IMG/VR virus record: IMGVR_UViG_3300034073_004910
Coordinates: 1-64,000 of that record
Direction: 5' to 3' (one strand)
Length of the DNA stretch: 64,000 bases
Origin: a virus
Part shown: positions 9,518-60,923 of the stretch, piece after piece
Numbering within the stretch: position 1 is the first letter of the stretch
How the letters are laid out: each line of letters begins with the position of its first letter
The notes under the pieces: generated by a model
The model's database searches: none
The model's input: the letters and a program-made list of their open reading frames with translations, nothing else
Told to the model about the DNA's origin: nothing
Program-made: the position numbers and the translations under genes

Positions 9518-10183
9518 TTATTTAATCCACCTGCCTGGCTCAAAATAGTTAAACCATACGCTAACATCAGGCATTAAAACGACACTTTGTGTATTTTCAC
9601 GAATAGCAGTTAAAATGAACATGCCATCTCCAGCATGTTCTAATGGAAATTTATATTTTTTAGAGTTCAATAATTTTCCTGAAATTGTTATTTGCTCTAG
9701 CCCAATGGAGCCAATTTTCAGATTATCTACTGATGCTGTGAGTCTTGTTGGCGGGTGCCTTCTTCCCGCTTCCGCATCTGTTGGAATTGCATCCCCCCTA
9801 TCCATAGACGTTATTATAATGTCAAAGTCAATGCCTTTGTCTTTTTTGATATGGTTTAAATTAGTAGTTATTTTTTTAAAATAATCTGGCTCAACTGCAT
9901 CATCGTCGTTTAAAAAACAATACATTTCACCATTATTAATTTCCATCGTATCTAATAGCCAGTTCATCGCAGCATTACATCTTTCCCAGAAATACATATG
10001 TTTGTTATTTTTCATAATATAATGATGAATCCAGTTTTTTTCGTACTTCTTGAATTCGTCATTATGTGGGAAGGTGTCATCAGTTACCACATGCCAGTTT
10101 ACATTTTTTGGTTCAAGAATACTGATCATCTTTTCAATATTCTCGACTCTATTTAATGGAGTTATCACGTTATAAATCATCAT
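9518..10183 (-). CDS. Putative GT-A (family 2-like) glycosyltransferase
   Basis: YNVITP..R, CFLNDDD, AGDGMF; lies in the sugar island. Confidence 0.6.
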   Translation of the reverse strand: MMIYNVITPLNRVENIEKMISILEPKNVNWHVVTDDTFPHNDEFKKYEKNWIHHYIMKNNKHMYFWERCNAAMNWLLDTMEINNGEMYCFLNDDDAVEPDYFKKITTNLNHIKKDKGIDFDIIITSMDRGDAIPTDAEAGRRHPPTRLTASVDNLKIGSIGLEQITISGKLLNSKKYKFPLEHAGDGMFILTAIRENTQSVVLMPDVSVWFNYFEPGRWIK

Positions 10184-36476: not shown

Positions 36477-36689
36477 ACTTTTCTCCTAATTGAATTCCTA
36501 GAATTCAATCTGCTCTTAAAAGAGCTAAGGAACGCAGCTAGAGAATTCTAGCCACATTATCGAACCCATCCTCTTCCTCGTCTTTATCCCACCAGTCCGA
36601 ACTTTCTCGAGTGGAATAAATATCGTTAACACCAGCAAACAAAAGTATAATAACTAAAAATAAATTCACTATTGTTTTCCTAATTAGTG

Positions 36690-37030
36690 GGAGTTTTTCT
36701 GTTGCGAGGAGGTTCCTTTGGGGAACACAAAACTCCCGAAACCCCGAGAAATCATGCTGCTACAGCATATTCCTCATTATAAAAGTCATCGTTTGCTTTT
36801 ATATTTATTTGCTTCTTCGACCGGGAAGTCCCAATCCTAACGGCTTTCGCATTGCCGGATCGTCCGCGTCTTTTTCCTGCTCTGTCGAAACCAGAACACC
36901 CCCATCAAAGTATACTCTGTCGCCGTTTTTGCTACGCTGGTAACGACCAAGACCTCAAAGAATATACTTTGGTGGAGGTGGGCGGAGTCGAACCGCCTTC
37001 CAAAACAGTTCCAATCAACATCATACGATC
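36690..37030 (-). ncRNA. ssrA: Circularly permuted (two-piece) tmRNA; acceptor piece ends in CCA at 36970, coding piece begins at 36903, tag at 36796-36752
   Basis: GGCGGTTCGACTCCGCCCACCTCCACCA precedes GGGGGTGTTCTGGTTTCGAC; G3-U70 Ala identity; tag ANDDFYNEEYAVAA*. Outer ends are approximate. Confidence 0.9.
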
Positions 37031-37155
37031 ATAATTGCTCAGTTTGGATTCGAACCTTGTCCGTGTATTGTCTACCCGCACGTCCCACCGTACTGACCGA
37101 GCAAATTTATTTATTTACTTTACAGTGAGTATTATAGTAAATCTTGAGCTAAAGG

Positions 37156-51680: not shown

Positions 51681-52019
51681 TCAGACCTGACCAACTGCCG
51701 CAACTTTAAGCTCTTCGAGCTTACGATACAAGCGAATCAGGTCAATTTTGCTTGCCTTGCCGAAGGATTCTACAGGAAAACCCAGAGTACCTTCGATCAT
51801 GGAGACAAGCATTTCTTTGCGTACCGGGAGCTCCCCAGTCTTGGTGAGACGAGGCTGCTTCCGGTAAACACCTTCACGAGAAAGCTTAGCAATGATCGAC
51901 TTTACAGGTCGATTCATTTCTTCTGCAAGCTCCTGAACCGTCTGAAGATTGGGTTCAGCCGAATAGCGCTCTACCATGTGAGCCACCATTTCGCTCGTGT
52001 AGTTCGTTGCTTCTTTCAT
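51681..52019 (-). CDS. T5 A2-like DNA-binding protein (paralog)
   Basis: ELAEEM..VKSIIAKLSREGVYRK..TKTGE..RK..KASK.DL. Confidence 0.55.
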   Translation of the reverse strand: MKEATNYTSEMVAHMVERYSAEPNLQTVQELAEEMNRPVKSIIAKLSREGVYRKQPRLTKTGELPVRKEMLVSMIEGTLGFPVESFGKASKIDLIRLYRKLEELKVAAVGQV

Positions 52020-53869
52020 TTGCTTTTCCCTCATTTCGAAAAACTATTATACAGGCAATCGAGGTGAAAAATCAAGTACTATTTTTTTAATCCTTGGAGC
52101 TGCTTGCTGAATAAAAATTGGTACTTGCTTTCCCGCCGAATTGAGAAACTATTATGCGCTCACCAAGCAGTAAAGTCAAGAGTCATTTTTCGATTGTAAA
52201 CAAAATGTACAGACCAATGACAAGTGCTGCTAGCATTGCAAAATCCATAAGAAACTGCATTAGGTACTCCCAGTTACAATTGCATTGTGAATGTCTAGAA
52301 AACCTGCTTCTTGTGCAAGACCGTATGCAGAGCGATCAAAACCAAAAACATTATACAGCACATGCCGATAACTGCCTTGATCGACAATTTCACCCTGATG
52401 AATACGTCGAATAACAGCACAAAACAATGCCAGTTGATCTTCTTTCGAAAAAGAATTCCAAAATTCTTCTTGCTTTTGAATTACAGCAGGCCGTCGAGCT
52501 TCGTAGCTTTGTTGAAGTGCATAAAAAAATTCAATGTTTTCCATTAAATAAACTCCCGTCCTCGAAAACTATAGCCTTCTGCGTCGATCCAATCCTGCAC
52601 ACTCATACCAACTTCATTGAGAGAAATATTTTTTATGCCGTCTTCAGAAACATAGTTTGGAGATTTATACGTTTCAACGTAGTTTACAAACCAGGAGTAA
52701 GTAACTCGATCTCCAAACTCATCATAAATTTGTTCGTTCTTAAGAAACTCTTTCCACTCCTGCCACGACTCTAGCTTTTCGTGAGTGTACCCACGAAAAA
52801 TAAACGCATGACCAAATGCCGCAACACCGATATGATAAAGTTCATCAAATCGCTTGCAGCATTTACAGAAGTTGTTCCCTGTGTAATAATTAACTTTCAT
52901 TATTCATTCCCTCTGCAAACGCTTCATAACCTTTTTGCGTCAATACAATCGTCTCATCGAAAGACTGTATCAATTCCTTTCGAACAAGAGAGCTGCAAAC
53001 TCCTGAAAGAGCTCTTCCTTCCAGACCAGAAGGATATTTTGCATCATTGATACAATTCGTCCAGACTTCTGCATTTGCTTCTTCGTAGCAAGTAGGAATT
53101 CCGTAGTTCATGTGATTGAAACAATTCGTTGCAATCGCACGAAGAACTGCAAACTCTTTATTCGTTAGATTCATTTTCTTCGACATTCCACATACGAATA
53201 TAGTTTAGTGCAAATGCGACTTGATTAGCAGGATAACCACTATCCAACAGAAAAATTCTCAGATCTGGATCTTTTTGAGAATTCCAGATCTTAGGAAAAC
53301 CAAATCTCCAGCCTTCTGGTGGGTCTATCCAAACTTTACCGTAATTATACATTTCAGTAATCCTCGTTATCTCGACCGGTCGTACCCCAGGAAACTGGAC
53401 CATATGCAGTCGACTTAATGCTGTTGTAGAGAATCACTCGCCATGCGTCGTAGTATGCTTGAGTCGAATTGTCAAACTCCTCCAAATCGTCTTCGGTAGG
53501 AGGGGGCAGTTCTTCAAAGGCTTCTTCTGCCATGATCACAGCTTGCTCATAACCATAATCTTCTGCATCTTCACGCGAACACGCCGAGATGACAAGCTCG
53601 TAGTCTTTGTTGTAGATTCCATAATTAACGAGGTACCTAGGCATGTATGCTCTCCATTTGTGATTGCAAGCTTTTTCCAAATTCGAAAAGTATTATAGGT
53701 TCATTGGGTCGCAAAGTCAAGAGAGAAATTCGGTTTCCTAAGGATTCGATTGAGCAAAATTTTCGGGGCCCAGCAAATTTTGTCAACTACTTTTTTATAA
53801 TTTGGACAAAATTTTCCCCAAAATTGTATAAAACCGGATTAAATTCCTGCAATTCCACGGACCCCGCTC

Positions 53870-54500: not shown

Positions 54501-54632
54501 CCCGATGAGCAAGAAACTTGACGAACGCCCCCAGGCGGCAAATGCGAATGAGAATCATTCGCATTTCCGGCGCAATGTTATAACATACCATTGAGCGAGT
54601 AAATGAAGGGGCGCTCGTCGCGCCCCAGTCAT

Positions 54633-54953
54633 CTATCGAGCGATCGCTTCGAGCAACCGTTCGAGTGACACCTTACTTGCCTTTTCCAGCCCATCCAGAC
54701 TGTTAGCGGCCAGACTCAATGCCTGCTCAATTCGGTCTACCGTGACTTCCTTGGAAGCAACCGGCTTTCCATCCTTACGAACCCGTTCGAGTTTTTGGTA
54801 GGGAATTCCTTCCCGAATCGCTTTTGCGATGATGCTTTTGACTTTCGCATCAAACTGCTCTGCCAGCCCTTCTACCTTTTCAAGGTTGAGCGGGGCCGCA
54901 TCGCGCATCGCGGTCAGAAGGGTCGGGTTAAACGTGCTAGCTTTCTCTGCCAT
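54633..54953 (-). CDS. T5 A2-like protein, copy 1
   Basis: LAEQF..KVKSIIAKAIREGIPYQK..RKDG..LDGLEKASK; near-identical to 59067-59387. Confidence 0.6.
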   Translation of the reverse strand: MAEKASTFNPTLLTAMRDAAPLNLEKVEGLAEQFDAKVKSIIAKAIREGIPYQKLERVRKDGKPVASKEVTVDRIEQALSLAANSLDGLEKASKVSLERLLEAIAR

Positions 54954-55324
54954 TTTGGCTTCCTCTTTTGGCTCGCTGGCCTATCCAGCGAATGAGAGAA
55001 TTATACGCCCATCGAGCCGAAAAGGAAAGAACTCTTTTTCATATCGCTGGCCGTTTTCATGCGAAAAAATTCCTTGACAAGCGCAGCGCGCTTGTGATAA
55101 AATCGGCGCGGCTATTGTCAAGTAAGTTGACAATTCGCCCCCAGGCGCCAAATGCGAATGAGAATCAATCGCATTTGGCAAGCAAAAAATAAGGCGTTAT
55201 AACGCCTTATTTTAAATATGCATCCTCGTATGTATCAAATATAAACGCGCATTCTAGCAGAAGATTTATTATTAGCGGGTTTAGGCAAATTAGCCTAAAC
55301 CCTTCTACCAGTTCCATCATATTA

Positions 55325-55996
55325 TTATGCCGCCTTTTGAACAATACGCCACGGATTAGGCGTTATTACATTGTAGGGAACCTTGCGCTTATGCTTGAAA
55401 CATTCTGCAAGAATTTCCGTTTCGATAATAGCGTCCGACAATGCAGTATGATCCTCGATAAAGTCATGATTACCGGAAATAAAACGATAGGCAAACTCTG
55501 CACCAGTCTTAATATTACCCTTAGCAGAAACCCAACCGCTATTCTGAGCGAGTTTAATGTAAGACTTTTTGTTGAGTCTTACTTCGCAAGCAAAACGCCA
55601 GATATCGAGTTCACGAATATCGGACGAAAACAGCGGAGCGGTATTATATTGTTCGCCCATGTTACGCAATACACGTTCATCGAATCCCAGATTATAAGCG
55701 GCTACAGTATCAATCTTATAATCAATCGCAAGATTGCGAATAGTATTAGATACCGTTTCCCATGATTCCATCTTAACAGTACCGTCGTTCAGCATGGGGG
55801 CGTAGTGCGTGAACATCTTGCGAGCGTAGAATGCGCCCATCATTCGTTCCGCATTCGTGAATACTTCGCGCACCAGTGCATTGTACTGGTGAACAATGTT
55901 ACCCTGACGATCAGTAATCGTAAGGCCAACGTCGTAAACGTGACCGTTCAGGTCGCACGTTTCGGTATCGAGAACCATAATCATTTGCTTTGCCAT
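55325..55996 (-). CDS. DEDDh 3'-5' exonuclease
   Basis: VLDTET, AYNLGFD, EDHTALSDA. Confidence 0.8.
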   Translation of the reverse strand: MAKQMIMVLDTETCDLNGHVYDVGLTITDRQGNIVHQYNALVREVFTNAERMMGAFYARKMFTHYAPMLNDGTVKMESWETVSNTIRNLAIDYKIDTVAAYNLGFDERVLRNMGEQYNTAPLFSSDIRELDIWRFACEVRLNKKSYIKLAQNSGWVSAKGNIKTGAEFAYRFISGNHDFIEDHTALSDAIIETEILAECFKHKRKVPYNVITPNPWRIVQKAA

Positions 55997-56052
55997 CTTC
56001 GCGAACCCTTGCTGTGAGTGAGAACCTACTATACTCAACGCCGAACCGGCTG

Positions 56053-56478
56053 TCAACGGTTTTCGTATCGAAAGACAAAAAATTCCTGCATCGCTCGGGC
56101 TTCCATTTCCCAAGGGGCGAGCCAATAGTCTAAATCCGTTTCGTTGGAATAAACCTTGCCTTTATATAAAACCTTATCGTTTGCAATATCTTGCAATTCT
56201 CCTTTTACCCATTGTTTAATATGCGTCATTTCATGCGCTACTAATTCCATTAGTCGCTGTTCTGACAACATAAGTTCTTCATTAATAATAATAAAGAACA
56301 AATCGTCATCGCCCCTAAAACATGCAGCATCCGCAGCACCAGAAACAAAATTTTCTATGCAGTCTGCCGATATATCAACGCCAATGTTTTTTGGCAGCTT
56401 ATAAAAGCTTACGCAATCTTTTGCGATAGCTTTCGCAATAGTATTAAAGCGCTTAAAGCCCAAATCAACCTCGATCAT
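56053..56478 (-). CDS. Zn metallopeptidase-like protein
   Basis: LVAHEMTHIKQ (HExxH), PWEMEA. Confidence 0.7.
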   Translation of the reverse strand: MIEVDLGFKRFNTIAKAIAKDCVSFYKLPKNIGVDISADCIENFVSGAADAACFRGDDDLFFIIINEELMLSEQRLMELVAHEMTHIKQWVKGELQDIANDKVLYKGKVYSNETDLDYWLAPWEMEARAMQEFFVFRYENR

Positions 56479-56606
56479 TTTCGCGTTCCTTCACAACCAA
56501 CACAGATATTATAGTCTAACGGGGGCCAAAAGTAAACATGAGAATTTCGTTTAGAATCAATGACTTAGATCAACCCGACCTTCGAGTTTTTCAATTTCAG
56601 TCATAC

Positions 56607-56792
56607 TTACCACACCAAGCGACGTACTTCCGAATCTAGCATCCATTCTTCAATGTAAACTGTTTCTACCATTTTACATTCATTATCGAGTTCAAGAGCC
56701 CGACATTTCGCTTTTTCGAGGTCAGAATATACTGCTACCGTAACGCGACCGTTCTGCGTACTTTCAAGAACAATACCATACACTACATTCAT
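56607..56792 (-). CDS. Small pre-early protein, paralog family 1/3
   Basis: VY....VYSD..KA..A.EL...VYIEEW..DS. Confidence 0.6.
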   Translation of the reverse strand: MNVVYGIVLESTQNGRVTVAVYSDLEKAKCRALELDNECKMVETVYIEEWMLDSEVRRLVW

Positions 56793-56991
56793 TTTCGCGT
56801 TCCTTCATTCGATGACAAGCATTCTAGCGGGTTTCATGCAGCCAGACTAGTGAAAGATTTTCATGGTGCCATGAGAAAAATTCGCTTGACAAGTATGGGA
56901 TGGGGATGGTATAATTTCGGCGCCATATTGACAAGTAGCTTGTCAATCGCCGAGGCGCCAAATGCGAATGATTCGCATTCGCATTTGCCCG

Positions 56992-57246
56992 TTATTGGTA
57001 AACAATCAACGCCAAAAGCGATGATTGTAAAAAGAACCCTATTCCGTTTGACGTTATATGCAAAAAGTCACGGTTGCCTATTGCGCGAATAAAATAAAGC
57101 GCCAGCCCAGCCCACACCATTAAGACTAATGAAATTTCAGGCAATTTAACATCCTGCCCGTTCAGTATTCCTATCGTAGTGGGAACCGTCGCGCCTTGAA
57201 TAAATAGCATACCGAGCCATCCGCAAAATTCGCAAAGGTTTTTCAT
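56992..57246 (-). CDS. Three-TM membrane protein (SemiSWEET/PQ-loop-like size)
   Basis: GWLGML..ATVPT; three hydrophobic helices. Confidence 0.45.
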   Translation of the reverse strand: MKNLCEFCGWLGMLFIQGATVPTTIGILNGQDVKLPEISLVLMVWAGLALYFIRAIGNRDFLHITSNGIGFFLQSSLLALIVYQ

Positions 57247-57727
57247 TCCTTCACCTTGACTTCAGTAATGCTGCAAGTCAGAAAATGATCTGGAGTCGCT
57301 CCCCAGATATACCCGTTTTCAGAATGCCAAGTTATTGGGTCACCATCTAACATTTTGTGTATCGCTTTTTGCGCGGCCTTCACGCTAACGTAAAGCCCTG
57401 CAATTGCACCGATTTCTTGGATATATACAACCGGATCTATGGTTAGCTTGTAAACGATCATTTTGCGTTCCTTCAGTTGAGAGAAGTATTCTAGCCCAGC
57501 GCGCGCTCGGTGTCAATCATTTTCTTCGGGCTTTTTCCAGTAGACTGCCAAGCGCTTGCAATTGAAGCGAATCGTGATTGATTCGTGCCCGTCGCGAATC
57601 GAAGTGTATCGCTTATAATTGGGACCAATGCTATCAACTTGAAAATCCCTGCCATTTTCCCAGTCTGCCAGCGCCTTAGCGGCTGAAGTGTAATCGCGAC
57701 CATACCCCGGAATTACTGTCATTTTAT

Positions 57728-57922
57728 TTATTCCCTCGACCAAACTGTAACAGAAAATTCGCTATCCATCATCCATTCTTCAATATAAACGCTTTCTCCC
57801 ATTTCGCATTGGCTCAATAATTCTTCAGCGAGTTTCACCGCCTTATTATAATCGGAATAAACTCCGACCGTAGCATAGCTGTTGTCCGAAGGCTCGCCAA
57901 ATACAACAGTGTATACATTCAT
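57728..57922 (-). CDS. Small pre-early protein, paralog family 2/3
   Basis: MNVYTV..VGVYSD..KA..AEEL..VYIEEWMMDS. Confidence 0.6.
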   Translation of the reverse strand: MNVYTVVFGEPSDNSYATVGVYSDYNKAVKLAEELLSQCEMGESVYIEEWMMDSEFSVTVWSRE

Positions 57923-58250
57923 TTTTACATCCCTCTATTCGATGACAAGCATTCTAGCGGGGTTCGTGCGAATAGACTAGTGAAATATTTTCATGATGCC
58001 ATGAGAAAAATTCGCTTGACAAGTAATGGATAGGGGTGATATAATTTTGGCGCCATATTGACAAGTAGCTTGACAATTCGCCCCGAGGCGGCAAATGCGA
58101 ATGATTCTCATTTGCATCGCTGCTCTTGTACCTCGCGCCTAACCAAATGCTTGACAATTGCGCGCTTAACATGCTTACCATGTTTAGCGGAATGCGTTCC
58201 TGCTCGCCCTGCTAAATGCGCGTTTTTAGCTACAAAATTTTGCGCTTTCA

Positions 58251-58697
58251 TTATACGTCCCTCGGGTGTATTGCGTTAATTCCCAGTATTTTAACAGTGT
58301 TTCTTACAGAATCATTATCTTCATAAAATACATTAGAAACGCGGTGAAAGTCTACATTTAATCCTGACAGTAAGTCATATTTTAGAAGTGCATCGGGCCG
58401 ATTATCGTTCTCACCTTCGCGGGACAATACGCGATCAAAGTGTAACCCATGAGTACGCAAAAAGGTAAAGTCTGCCATCTGCAATACTCGCGCAGTACAA
58501 ATTACGACAATATTACCAGCATTCCAAACGTCACGCCAAACGTTAGCGAGCGGTAAAAGTTTATCTTGCATAATCTTTTCGGGCGTAGAATTTGCTCGCC
58601 ATCCGGCAAGGCAAAAGCTACCGTCCGCATTCGCAACAGAACGATGGCTTGAATCTATGACCGTTCCATCTAAATCGAAAATGTTATATCTTGGCAT
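58251..58697 (-). CDS. HAD-family phosphatase (PNKP phosphatase-like)
   Basis: IFDLDGTV, ICTAR, RPD..LK, FYEDN. Confidence 0.8.
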   Translation of the reverse strand: MPRYNIFDLDGTVIDSSHRSVANADGSFCLAGWRANSTPEKIMQDKLLPLANVWRDVWNAGNIVVICTARVLQMADFTFLRTHGLHFDRVLSREGENDNRPDALLKYDLLSGLNVDFHRVSNVFYEDNDSVRNTVKILGINAIHPRDV

Positions 58698-59066
58698 TTT
58701 CTTAAACCCCGTAAACGTGTGCGCTGGCAACAATGATTGCAAAAAGAACGACTCTGCTAAGAGCGGAAGTGAGTACTAATTCTGCGAGCTTTTTCATTCG
58801 TTCCGTTTCCTGATTCAATGGGAGTATTCTACCGGGTCCGAGCAAAAAGTACAAGAACTCTTTTTCATATCGCTGGCCGTTTTCATGCGAAAAAATTCCT
58901 TGACAAAACCCATGCGGTTATCGTAAAATCGGCGCGGCTATTGACAAGTAGCTTGTCAATTCGCCGAGGCGGCAAATGCGAATGATTCTCATTTGCATTT
59001 GCCGAGCAACGTTATAACATACCATTGAGCGGGTAAATGAAGGGGCGCTCATCGCGCCCCGATCAT

Positions 59067-59387
59067 CTATCGAGCAATCGCTTCCAGCAACCGCTCGAGT
59101 GACACCTTACTTGCCTTTTCCAGCCCATCCAGACTGTTAGTGGCCAGATTCAATGCTTGCTCAATTCGGTCTACCGTGACTTCCTTGGAAGCAACTGGCT
59201 TTCCATCCTTGCGAACCCGTTCGAGTTTCTGGTAGGGAATTCCTTCCCGAATCGCTTTTGCGATGATGCTCTTGACTTTCGCATCAAACTGCTCTGCAAG
59301 GCTCTCTACCTTTTCAAGGTTCAGAGGCGCTGCATCGCGCATCGCGGTCAGAAGGGTCGGGTTAAACGTGCTAGCTTTCTCTGCCAT
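59067..59387 (-). CDS. T5 A2-like protein, copy 2
   Basis: 3 aa differences from 54633-54953. Confidence 0.6.
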   Translation of the reverse strand: MAEKASTFNPTLLTAMRDAAPLNLEKVESLAEQFDAKVKSIIAKAIREGIPYQKLERVRKDGKPVASKEVTVDRIEQALNLATNSLDGLEKASKVSLERLLEAIAR

Positions 59388-59596
59388 TTTGGCTTTCTCC
59401 TTTGGCTCGCTGGCCTATCCAGCGAATGAGAGTATTCTACAGGGCCTGAGCAAAAAGTACAAGACCTTTTTTTCATATCGCTGGCCGTTTTCATGCAAAA
59501 AAATTCCTTGACAAGCGCAGCGCGCTTATGATAAAATCGGCGCGCCCATTGTCAAGTAGCTTGACAATTCGCGCCGAGGCTACAAATGCGAAGATT

Positions 59597-59965
59597 TTTC
59601 ACTTGCAAACCAGGCCCAGGCCTGGCATTGAAATTTCACTTGCAAATTCGCCCCAGGCCTGGCATTGAAATTTCACTTGCAAACCAAACCCAGGCCTGGC
59701 ATTGAAATTTCACTTGCAAATTCGCCCCAGGCCTGGCATTGAAATTTCACTTGCAAATTCGCCCCGGGCCTGGCATTGAAATTTCACTTGCATAGGTTTC
59801 TAACTTGCATAGATTTCTAACTTGCATAGATTTCTAACTTGCATGTGCAGGTTTCTTGCCTTTCCCCTCGATGGGCAGGTAGCTTGCAGGTGAGCCCGCC
59901 GATGGGCAGGTAGCTTGCAGGTGAGCCCGCCGATGGGCAGGTAGCTTGCAGGTGAGCCCGCCGAT
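59597..59965. repeat. Stacked tandem repeats: 5x37 bp (59597-59781), 3x17 bp, 3x31 bp
   Basis: TTTCACTTGCAAANNNNNCCCAGGCCTGGCATTGAAA; CTTGCATAGATTTCTAA; CGATGGGCAGGTAGCTTGCAGGTGAGCCCGC. Confidence 0.9.
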
Positions 59966-60208
59966 GCGCAAGAGACTTGCCTTTGCCCGCCCGATGGGCA
60001 GGCAAGTTGACGAATTCCATGAGATGCGCAGAAAACTTGCATTTTCGGCGCGGTTGGCACGTTTCTTGCACATGAGTCAAAGCTGGCATGAATTTTGCAT
60101 GTACTCCACAATTGGCATGATTCTTGCAGATTCGGCGCGGTCCGCAAGATGCTTGCACAATTCCGACAAATGCGAGTAATTCGCATTTGTCGGAATTATA
60201 AGCGATTA

Positions 60209-60553
60209 TTAAGTAGTCGCTTTATGTTCTTCTAGCATACGCGCGAACAATGCGCGCTTATTATTAATAATCGCTTCGGCTTTTATTAGAATATCGAGTT
60301 CTTCTGCCGTTAACTCAATCGGATCAAGTTTCGGCAATCCTTCTGTAGCGTTCTTTTTATTATTGCAGTCATGGCAAAGGCATTGTAACCATTCAGGATC
60401 ATTTAAATCGATACCCATTGCAAGCAACGTTTTGCGTGGATAAACATGATCAATTTCAAGATTAGAACCACTACCGCAAGCTGCGCAGCGATAGTTATAT
60501 GCTGCAAATACTTGCGCGCGCAGTCTCATTTCAACCTTGCTAAACTTTGCCAT
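60209..60553 (-). CDS. HNH endonuclease
   Basis: CAACG...LEIDHVYP..LQCLCHDCNNKK. Confidence 0.85.
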   Translation of the reverse strand: MAKFSKVEMRLRAQVFAAYNYRCAACGSGSNLEIDHVYPRKTLLAMGIDLNDPEWLQCLCHDCNNKKNATEGLPKLDPIELTAEELDILIKAEAIINNKRALFARMLEEHKATT

Positions 60554-60923
60554 CTCGTCTCTCCAGTACCGTTGCTCTATGGTTCCCATTATACAGGCAT
60601 CCTCGAGCATGGCAATAGGCGAGTTAGACCTTTTTTTCATATCGCTGAGCTTTCTTATGCGAAAAAAATCCTTGACACGCTCTGGCGTGGTAAGGTAAAA
60701 TCGGCGCGCCCATTGTGAAGTAGACTGACAATCATTCAGCGGCCTACATGAAAAAAATTCGCTTGACAAGTATAGGATAGGTGAGGTATAATTTTGGCGC
60801 CATATTGGCAAGTAGACTGACAATCATTCACCGGCCTACATAAAAAAATTCGCTTGACACGCTCTGGCGTGGTAGGGTATAATCGGCGCGCCCAAATGAG
60901 AGGTATTCTCATTTGGGTTACCG

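Follow-up and report, generated by a model that had tools for sequence, protein, structure and literature searches.

The stretch of DNA analysed here, called the window, comprises bases 1-64000 of the 94,402-base viral record IMGVR_UViG_3300034073_004910, which is linear and in which no end repeats were found. Our subject is a block at 54.6-61.1 kb whose intergenic gaps carry an array of palindromes resembling operators of the iron repressor Fur. As the sequence-only reading of this DNA had supposed, the phage is T5-like, albeit a distant relative: its TerL shares 47.7% identity with the TerL proteins of Klebsiella T5-like phages, and its DNA polymerase about 44% with the polymerases of T5-like phages of Vibrio, E. 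coli and Salmonella. No cultured phage matched the block in a megablast search. The genes of the block all lie on the minus strand and encode an exonuclease-like protein, a HAD phosphatase, an HNH endonuclease and several small open reading frames (ORFs); terS and terL follow directly beyond it on the plus strand, and the T5 terminal repeat likewise lies near the terminase genes. By analogy with T5, which the Dmp homologue, the HNH gene and the adjoining terS bring to mind, this block would be the first DNA to enter the cell. No A1 homologue was found in the record. The two genes that matter most for what follows, and the palindromes themselves, are listed here.

58251-58742, minus strand: HAD phosphatase, homologue of T5 pre-early Dmp (38% identity, E 7e-14), which marks the block as pre-early-like
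51681-52034, minus strand: ORF of 117 amino acids, weakly A2-like and putatively DNA-binding (hits to a phage DNA-binding-protein family and to A2 of Vibrio phage Ceto, E 0.002-0.07)
54540-54566, unstranded: predicted Fur-type double box 1, a 27-bp 12-3-12 palindrome (21.5 bits at 54547, 11.2 bits at 54541), about 40 nt after sigma-54-like repeats
55150-55176, unstranded: predicted Fur-type double box 2 (18.0 and 13.3 bits), 53 nt past the -10 of the promoter at 55074, with a bidirectional terminator behind it at about 55186-55213
56960-56986, unstranded: predicted Fur-type double box 3 (21.8 bits, the best 19-mer in the genome), 45 nt past the -10 of the promoter at 56886
58093-58113, unstranded: predicted Fur-type box 4 (21.5 bits), 48 nt past the -10 of the promoter at 58016
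58974-59000, unstranded: predicted Fur-type double box 5 (21.5 bits), 45 nt past the -10 of the promoter at 58900
59584-59592, unstranded: truncated copy, left half-site only, downstream of the promoter at 59508 and overrun by a 37-nt tandem array
60159-60197 (core 60168-60188), unstranded: predicted Fur-type box 6 (17.5 bits), within a palindrome with 17-bp arms, about 40 nt after the last sigma-54-like element
60891-60917 (core 60894-60914), unstranded: predicted Fur-type box 7 (14.3 bits), starting 11 nt past the -10 of the promoter at 60854, which puts it at about +5 to +23 in the transcript

The sequence-only reading had described seven near-perfect palindromes and one truncated copy, all intergenic and seen nowhere else in the window, and our counts confirm this description and extend it to the full record. 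The pattern AAATGMGA..TCKCATTT matches exactly seven times, at 54540, 55150, 56960, 58093, 58974, 60168 and 60894, against 0.00 matches expected from 100 shuffles. Outside these sites it has no match in the whole 94,402 bases, and a reversed control pattern has none in the record either. The copy at 59584 retains only the left half-site AAATGCGAA before the tandem array takes over. All copies are intergenic, although a doubtful 47-aa ORF has its stop codon in contact with the copy at 58093. They all share the core AATG[C/A]GA[A/G][T/G]-N-ATTC[G/T]CATT. Five of the seven are 27-bp 12-3-12 palindromes assembled from the hexamers AAATGC GAATGA, a 3-base spacer and TCATTC GCATTT, each of which amounts to two 19-bp sites lying 6 bp apart; the copies at 60168 and 60894 have the same 21-bp core as the others, extended to longer palindromes.

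This core is the same as that of the Caulobacter Fur consensus, ATTG[C/A]GAA[C/T]-N-[A/G]TTC[T/G]CAAT (PMC2724300). We scored the phage genome with a symmetric position weight matrix (PWM) built only from 12 published Caulobacter Fur sites (PMC2724300). Of all 19-mers in the 94.4 kb genome, the seven palindromes rank highest, at 14.3-21.8 bits, compared with 13.2-24.2 bits for the training sites, and ten 19-mers reach at least 12 bits vs. 1.2 in shuffles. Pairs of matches 6 bp apart occur at 54541/54547, 55151/55157 and 56961/56967, the spacing of overlapping sites in footprinted, strong E. coli Fur operators (PMC2189734). No Fur-family gene was found in the phage. The assignment of the palindromes as predicted Fur-box matches of the GC-richer TG[C/A]GA..TC[G/T]CA type, as in Caulobacter, holds: both the likeness to Fur operators and the alphaproteobacterial form named in the sequence-only reading are borne out by the Caulobacter site table and by the independent matrix, including the comparison with a shuffled background that this reading had proposed. 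It should be noted that in some alphaproteobacteria the reader of such a motif is Mur and not Fur (PMC1698941).

We also looked for exact copies of the 19-mer AATGMGAATNATTCKCATT in prokaryotic genomes, one for each species; it occurs at 120 or more bacterial loci, mostly in Burkholderiales and also in SAR86, Pelagibacteraceae and others. A Pfam tally of the 145 ORFs starting within 350 bp on either side of the 19-mer at the 120 bacterial loci listed gave Plug (16), TonB receptor barrels (13), FbpA-like binding proteins (11) and ECF sigma factors (4), with ZnuA (3), FTR1 (3), FeoB (2), Fur (2) and ferritin (2) occurring more rarely. These flanking ORFs make up an iron regulon, so that in nature the 19-mer functions as a Fur box.

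Every copy of the palindrome lies downstream of a promoter-like element on the plus strand. On the plus strand the block contains ten sigma-70 promoters, each matching the consensus at 11 or 12 of 12 positions with a spacer of 18 nt. These strong promoters oppose the local minus-strand genes and point to the terminase side, without an ORF of their own; the local genes have their own minus-strand promoters, which are weaker than the plus-strand set. The elements associated with the boxes are as follows.

55074-55103, plus strand: strong predicted sigma-70 promoter, TTGACA-N18-TAAAAT, toward box 2 and against the local genes
56886-56915, plus strand: consensus sigma-70 promoter (12/12), toward box 3
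58016-58045, plus strand: consensus sigma-70 promoter (12/12), toward box 4
58900-58929, plus strand: sigma-70 promoter (11/12), toward box 5
59508-59537, plus strand: sigma-70 promoter (11/12), toward the truncated copy
60854-60883, plus strand: consensus sigma-70 promoter (12/12), third of a tandem trio (60672, 60763, 60854), toward box 7
56928-56946, unstranded: second palindrome, TTGACAAG-TAG-CTTGTCAA, between the -10 and box 3
55115-55133, 58058-58076, 58941-58959 and 59549-59567, unstranded: other copies of the second palindrome, between promoter and box or truncated copy
59874-60128, plus strand: six sigma-54-type -24/-12 look-alikes (exact GGCA-N6-TTGCW), upstream of box 6

Boxes 2 to 5 and the truncated copy lie 45-53 nt past the -10, with the second palindrome TTGACAAG-TAG-CTTGTCAA in between; in these four units and the truncated one, about 35 extra bases separate promoter and box and hold this second palindrome. 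In most of its copies A/T flips preserve the symmetry. In one relative (L041) TGTTTCACGTGAAACA stands downstream of the box in place of the second palindrome. The tandem trio (60672-60883, plus strand) consists of near-consensus promoters spaced 91 nt apart, with a box behind the last one only.

Between the -10 and the box there is always GGCGCC or GGCGCGCC, in this phage (55105-55112, 56917-56924, 60885-60892 and other units), in its relatives and in Vibrio T5-like phages (loci L041, L047, L056, L012, L087, L088 and L246). This element could be a GC-rich discriminator or a T5-type nick site.

Boxes 1 and 6 lack a sigma-70 promoter and lie about 40 nt behind arrays of sigma-54-like elements. 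The exact form GGCA-N6-TTGCW occurs 7 times in the window vs. 1.1 expected, and the six copies of the 59874-60128 array are all on the plus strand. Near-copies occur at about 54417 and about 54484, and both arrays end some 40 nt before a Fur-type palindrome. The Vibrio phages Ceto and VPT02 have a similar sigma-54-like element beside their box, on the opposite strand.

The arrangement is kept in a large group of uncultured phages. Scanning IMG/VR for the 19-mer alone yielded 119 loci, of which about 21 belong to relatives of this phage, with terS and terL 40-70% identical and with the same phosphatase and the same 106-aa protein (see below). In their unit, TTGACAC-N17/18-TATAAT follows an AT-rich element, and GGCGCC and the box come next. 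Here too the unit is directed opposite to the local ORFs, and in every locus that includes the terminase it faces the terminase. In this phage and the 21 relatives together, 17 of 45 boxes have a promoter of at least 11/12 firing toward them within 80 nt, vs. about 4% expected, and of these 17, 12 have a gap of 8-13 nt from -10 to box and 4 a gap of 45-53 nt. A position at or just past the promoter is seen for the 60894 box of this phage and 12 boxes of relatives (8-13 nt); four boxes of this phage lie at 45-53 nt and two behind sigma-54-like repeats. The intergenic DNA of the relatives cannot be aligned, yet the 19-bp core is exact, with terL only 50-70% identical. A large uncultured clade keeps the promoter-GGCGCC-box arrangement, with a box flavour that fits another host group than that of the enteric phages.

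The interpretation that we favour, with somewhat more belief than doubt, is that host Fur-Fe2+ would occupy the boxes and clamp the strong ORF-less promoters, making their firing dependent on iron. The palindromes would be operators for a host metal repressor of the Fur family (Fur, or Mur in some alphaproteobacteria), and the repeated unit would consist of a near-consensus sigma-70 promoter with an AT-rich element upstream of it and GGCGCC and the box downstream. In an iron-replete cell, Fur-Fe2+ dimers would sit on the boxes, the 27-bp versions holding two dimers 6 bp apart, and would block initiation or elongation from very strong promoters. When iron is scarce, Fur would leave, and the promoters would fire into the convergent pre-early-type genes or yield short RNAs. 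The early programme would thereby be coupled to the iron status of the host, and one coherent possibility is that firing under iron starvation restrains an infection that could not be finished. The phage probably reads host iron status at these sites, because the boxes resemble strong Fur sites, most of them just behind strong gene-less promoters. The boxes match Fur sites in sequence, are coupled to promoters and are conserved; we infer that Fur binds them, in which direction it acts and that the phage benefits.

Several points weigh against this interpretation. In five units the box lies at about +45 to +70, where a repressor would be less effective, and two boxes stand behind sigma-54-like repeats instead of a sigma-70 promoter. 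The benefit to the phage is a conjecture. The reader could be the conserved weak A2-like ORF at 51681-52034 instead of Fur. Finally, the flanks at offsets 10-12 are complementary in 20-27 of 41 sites vs. 7-12 in the background, and C/G pairs in the flanks are present in the phage sites and absent from bacterial Fur sites; selection for a longer palindrome or hairpin has likely been added to that for the box.

This last point leads to the proposal that the palindromes act as hairpins in RNA or DNA, as 5' stem-loops, attenuators or terminators of short plus-strand transcripts or as cruciforms, with no protein reading their sequence. Indeed, all copies fold into stable stems (-19 to -26 kcal/mol, z-scores -3.4 to -9.7), the stems are lengthened by variable complementary flanks such as CC/GG, CAC/GTG and TTCCGAC/GTCGGAA, and a U-run follows the stem in a few relatives. 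However, pairing is all that a hairpin requires, and the core nevertheless holds to the Fur consensus in distant relatives. Stability is equal on the two strands (mean difference -0.06 kcal/mol, 7 sites vs. 9), and only 3-4 of 18 promoter-linked boxes in the clade have a U-rich tail. In a covariation test on single-axis sites, the C/A vs. G/T position was complementary in only 16 of 29, a weak test in which several sites have a near-equal second axis; 12 sites have their true axis 3 nt away. We consider hairpins without a sequence-reading protein very unlikely as an explanation of the array. An intrinsic terminator as the general role was rejected: the sequence-only reading had named terminator hairpins as one alternative, and none of the seven palindromes is among the 13 terminator-like sites, U-rich tails being rare.

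That same reading had put forward, as its first proposal, a decoy: by titrating Fur, the boxes would relieve repression of the host iron regulon and so supply the iron enzymes of the phage. The density of near-perfect sites is very high, with six sites of at most one mismatch in 6.4 kb of phage DNA compared with 1-4 in each of five bacterial genomes (0.8-3.5 Mb), and the phage encodes an NrdA-type ribonucleotide reductase. Multicopy Fur boxes titrate Fur in Fur titration (FURTA) assays. However, a cell holds thousands of Fur molecules, against some 7-15 sites per entering genome, and titration would require hundreds of replicated genomes, arriving late. T5-type infection, moreover, destroys host DNA early, so that de-repressing host genes would bring the phage little gain; by analogy with T5, the Dmp homologue suggests that this programme is retained here (10.64898/2026.04.02.716235). 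A decoy also leaves the fixed promoter spacing unexplained. These three points, the small number of sites that one genome brings in, the early destruction of host DNA and the unexplained spacing, make a decoy unlikely, and we give it very little credence. The second proposal of that reading, that pre-early transcription is tied to iron status, fits better, the boxes being coupled to promoters at fixed spacing.

To place the array among cultured phages, we turned to T5 and its relatives, in whose termini the sequence-only reading had suggested looking for the motif. By blastn, the segment 60846-60920 matches Demerecviridae only, several times within annotated direct terminal repeats. In T5 (NC_005859, 121.7 kb) all generalised Fur-type 19-mers lie in the two terminal repeats, and the sole box of Vibrio phage Ceto is in its terminal repeat, again after GGCGCGCC. 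The T5 boxes at 9552, 9656 and 9691 (span 9552-9709) lie within the annotated iss, about 40 nt from the major nick, and are 0-1 base off the generalised pattern. Tight clusters of Fur-type boxes are present both at this T5 locus (L124, 9540-9716) and in an enteric T5 relative from IMG/VR (L260, 4880-5423), which has 5 boxes in 520 bp, including the perfect E. coli-type AATGATAATCATTATCATT. Among viral contigs with a perfect E. coli-type box, few are T5-like (about 4 of 120). One unrelated viral contig (L280, 10812-11322) has at least seven perfect E. coli-type Fur 19-mers at its end, mostly 89-91 nt apart.

The half-sites are GATAAT/GAGAAT in T5 and its enteric relative and GCGAAT/GAGAAT in the present clade. 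Half-site flavour follows host type and is therefore as a host reader would predict. In a comparison of 25 T5-like phages, Davison described the iss repeats as direct repeat C and the palindromes palE-palJ, and calculated that the first-step DNA shears within this block of repeats, in another set of coordinates (10.1101/866236). DnaA was proposed there as the stopper, and the word 'iron' is absent from the paper (10.1101/866236). In the literature searched, we found no paper linking Fur to T5-type phages or to T5 injection.

These locations raise the idea that Fur docks as part of the pause in DNA entry, the boxes and repeat arrays assembling a complex of host proteins that halts or paces transfer, with promoter coupling secondary. 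It would account for the only Fur-type 19-mers of T5 lying in the terminal repeats, within iss near the major nick and in the block of the calculated shear point (10.1101/866236), and for the boxes of the enteric relative and of Ceto at the corresponding places. Here, however, the boxes are dispersed over 6.4 kb and not clustered, their fixed spacing to promoters in many relatives indicates transcription control, and the literature searched offers no link between Fur and T5 injection. As an account of the present array we think an entry pause improbable. A broader idea, which we regard as doubtful but worth stating, combines the two: Fur would be a conserved host factor of T5-type phages, and boxes in the first-entering DNA would gate either the pre-early programme or the pause and restart of transfer by iron status. 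The forms that it would take, a tight cluster at the injection-stop region in T5 and promoter-coupled units in this clade, are put forward just as tentatively.

The comparison across hosts also bears on whether a phage protein, such as the A2-like DNA-binding protein, reads the palindromes, the likeness to Fur being incidental or serving competition with Fur. The ORF at 51681-52034 is conserved in at least nine relatives and has the weak matches given above, and A2 of T5 is annotated as a DNA-binding protein required for DNA transfer. However, an independent Fur matrix, derived from host sites, scores these palindromes as high as genuine Fur sites, and the Fur consensus is kept across phages of different host types, which a phage-specific reader would not need. 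The A2 matches are themselves weak (E 0.002-0.07). A phage reader thus seems unlikely to us, and we return to host Fur as the favoured reader.

As to the host, the window encodes a transfer-messenger RNA (tmRNA) at 36661-37066 on the minus strand, circularly permuted and in two pieces, with the tag ANDDFYNEEYAVAA. It matches the Rfam families tmRNA_permuted (116 bits) and beta_tmRNA (85.5 bits, barely above the cut-off). Because of the latter match, the host may belong to the betaproteobacteria and not to the alphaproteobacteria. A BLAST search with the tmRNA against about 800 alpha- and betaproteobacterial genomes gave matches of 30 nt only, and a look-up of the PlcP-like gene gave no clue to the host. 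The block also contains two paralogous 106-aa genes, at 54633-54953 and 59067-59387 (both on the minus strand), which match no family and are conserved in relatives. They belong to a duplication, 93% identical over 300 nt or more, that also takes in their terminator hairpins and the downstream Fur-type boxes.

Fur boxes are textbook material and the T5 iss repeats have long been catalogued, the two not having been joined in the literature searched. If the iron-gated interpretation is true, the unexplained iss repeats of T5 would gain a reader, and the regulator of iron would be connected with a phage whose entry receptor is itself under iron control. Should Fur bind, the earliest DNA of a virulent phage family would sense the iron status of the host, and the 60-year-old puzzle of two-step T5 injection would gain a concrete host candidate, testable in E. 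coli. What the present phage adds is boxes at fixed spacing to strong ORF-less promoters, in a dispersed, GC-type version that is kept in a large uncultured clade.

Phage genes under host metal repressors have precedents in stx1, controlled by Fur, and in corynephage tox, controlled by DtxR. As there, a phage promoter would here be coupled to an operator for the host iron repressor. In those cases, however, single operators control toxin genes of temperate phages, whereas the present phage is virulent and of T5 type, and its array lies in the early block behind promoters that lack an ORF. FURTA plasmids resemble the array in having multiple Fur boxes on an extrachromosomal replicon; they differ in that titration takes hundreds of copies, and nothing here points to titration as the selected function. 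With proteobacterial Fur operators (PMC2724300, PMC2189734) the phage boxes share the 19-bp 9-1-9 inverted repeats, the same core, the overlaps 6 bp apart and, for some of the boxes, a promoter-proximal position. They differ in being on a virulent phage, behind ORF-less promoters opposing the local genes, and in having extra G/C-paired flanks.

The closest likeness in kind of location is to Repeat Region 3/iss of T5, whose repeats have no assigned reader in the Davison paper (10.1101/866236). Both lie in non-coding pre-early DNA with the same half-sites (AAATGAGAATCATT...), the boxes are confined to the block and repeat arrays are nearby. In T5, however, a tight cluster of 4-5 boxes stands without an obvious promoter, whereas the seven boxes of this phage are scattered over 6.4 kb and each follows a promoter-like element. 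Its half-sites are of the GC-richer type, GCGAAT/GAGAAT, and the status of terminal repeat, known for T5, is supposed here by analogy.

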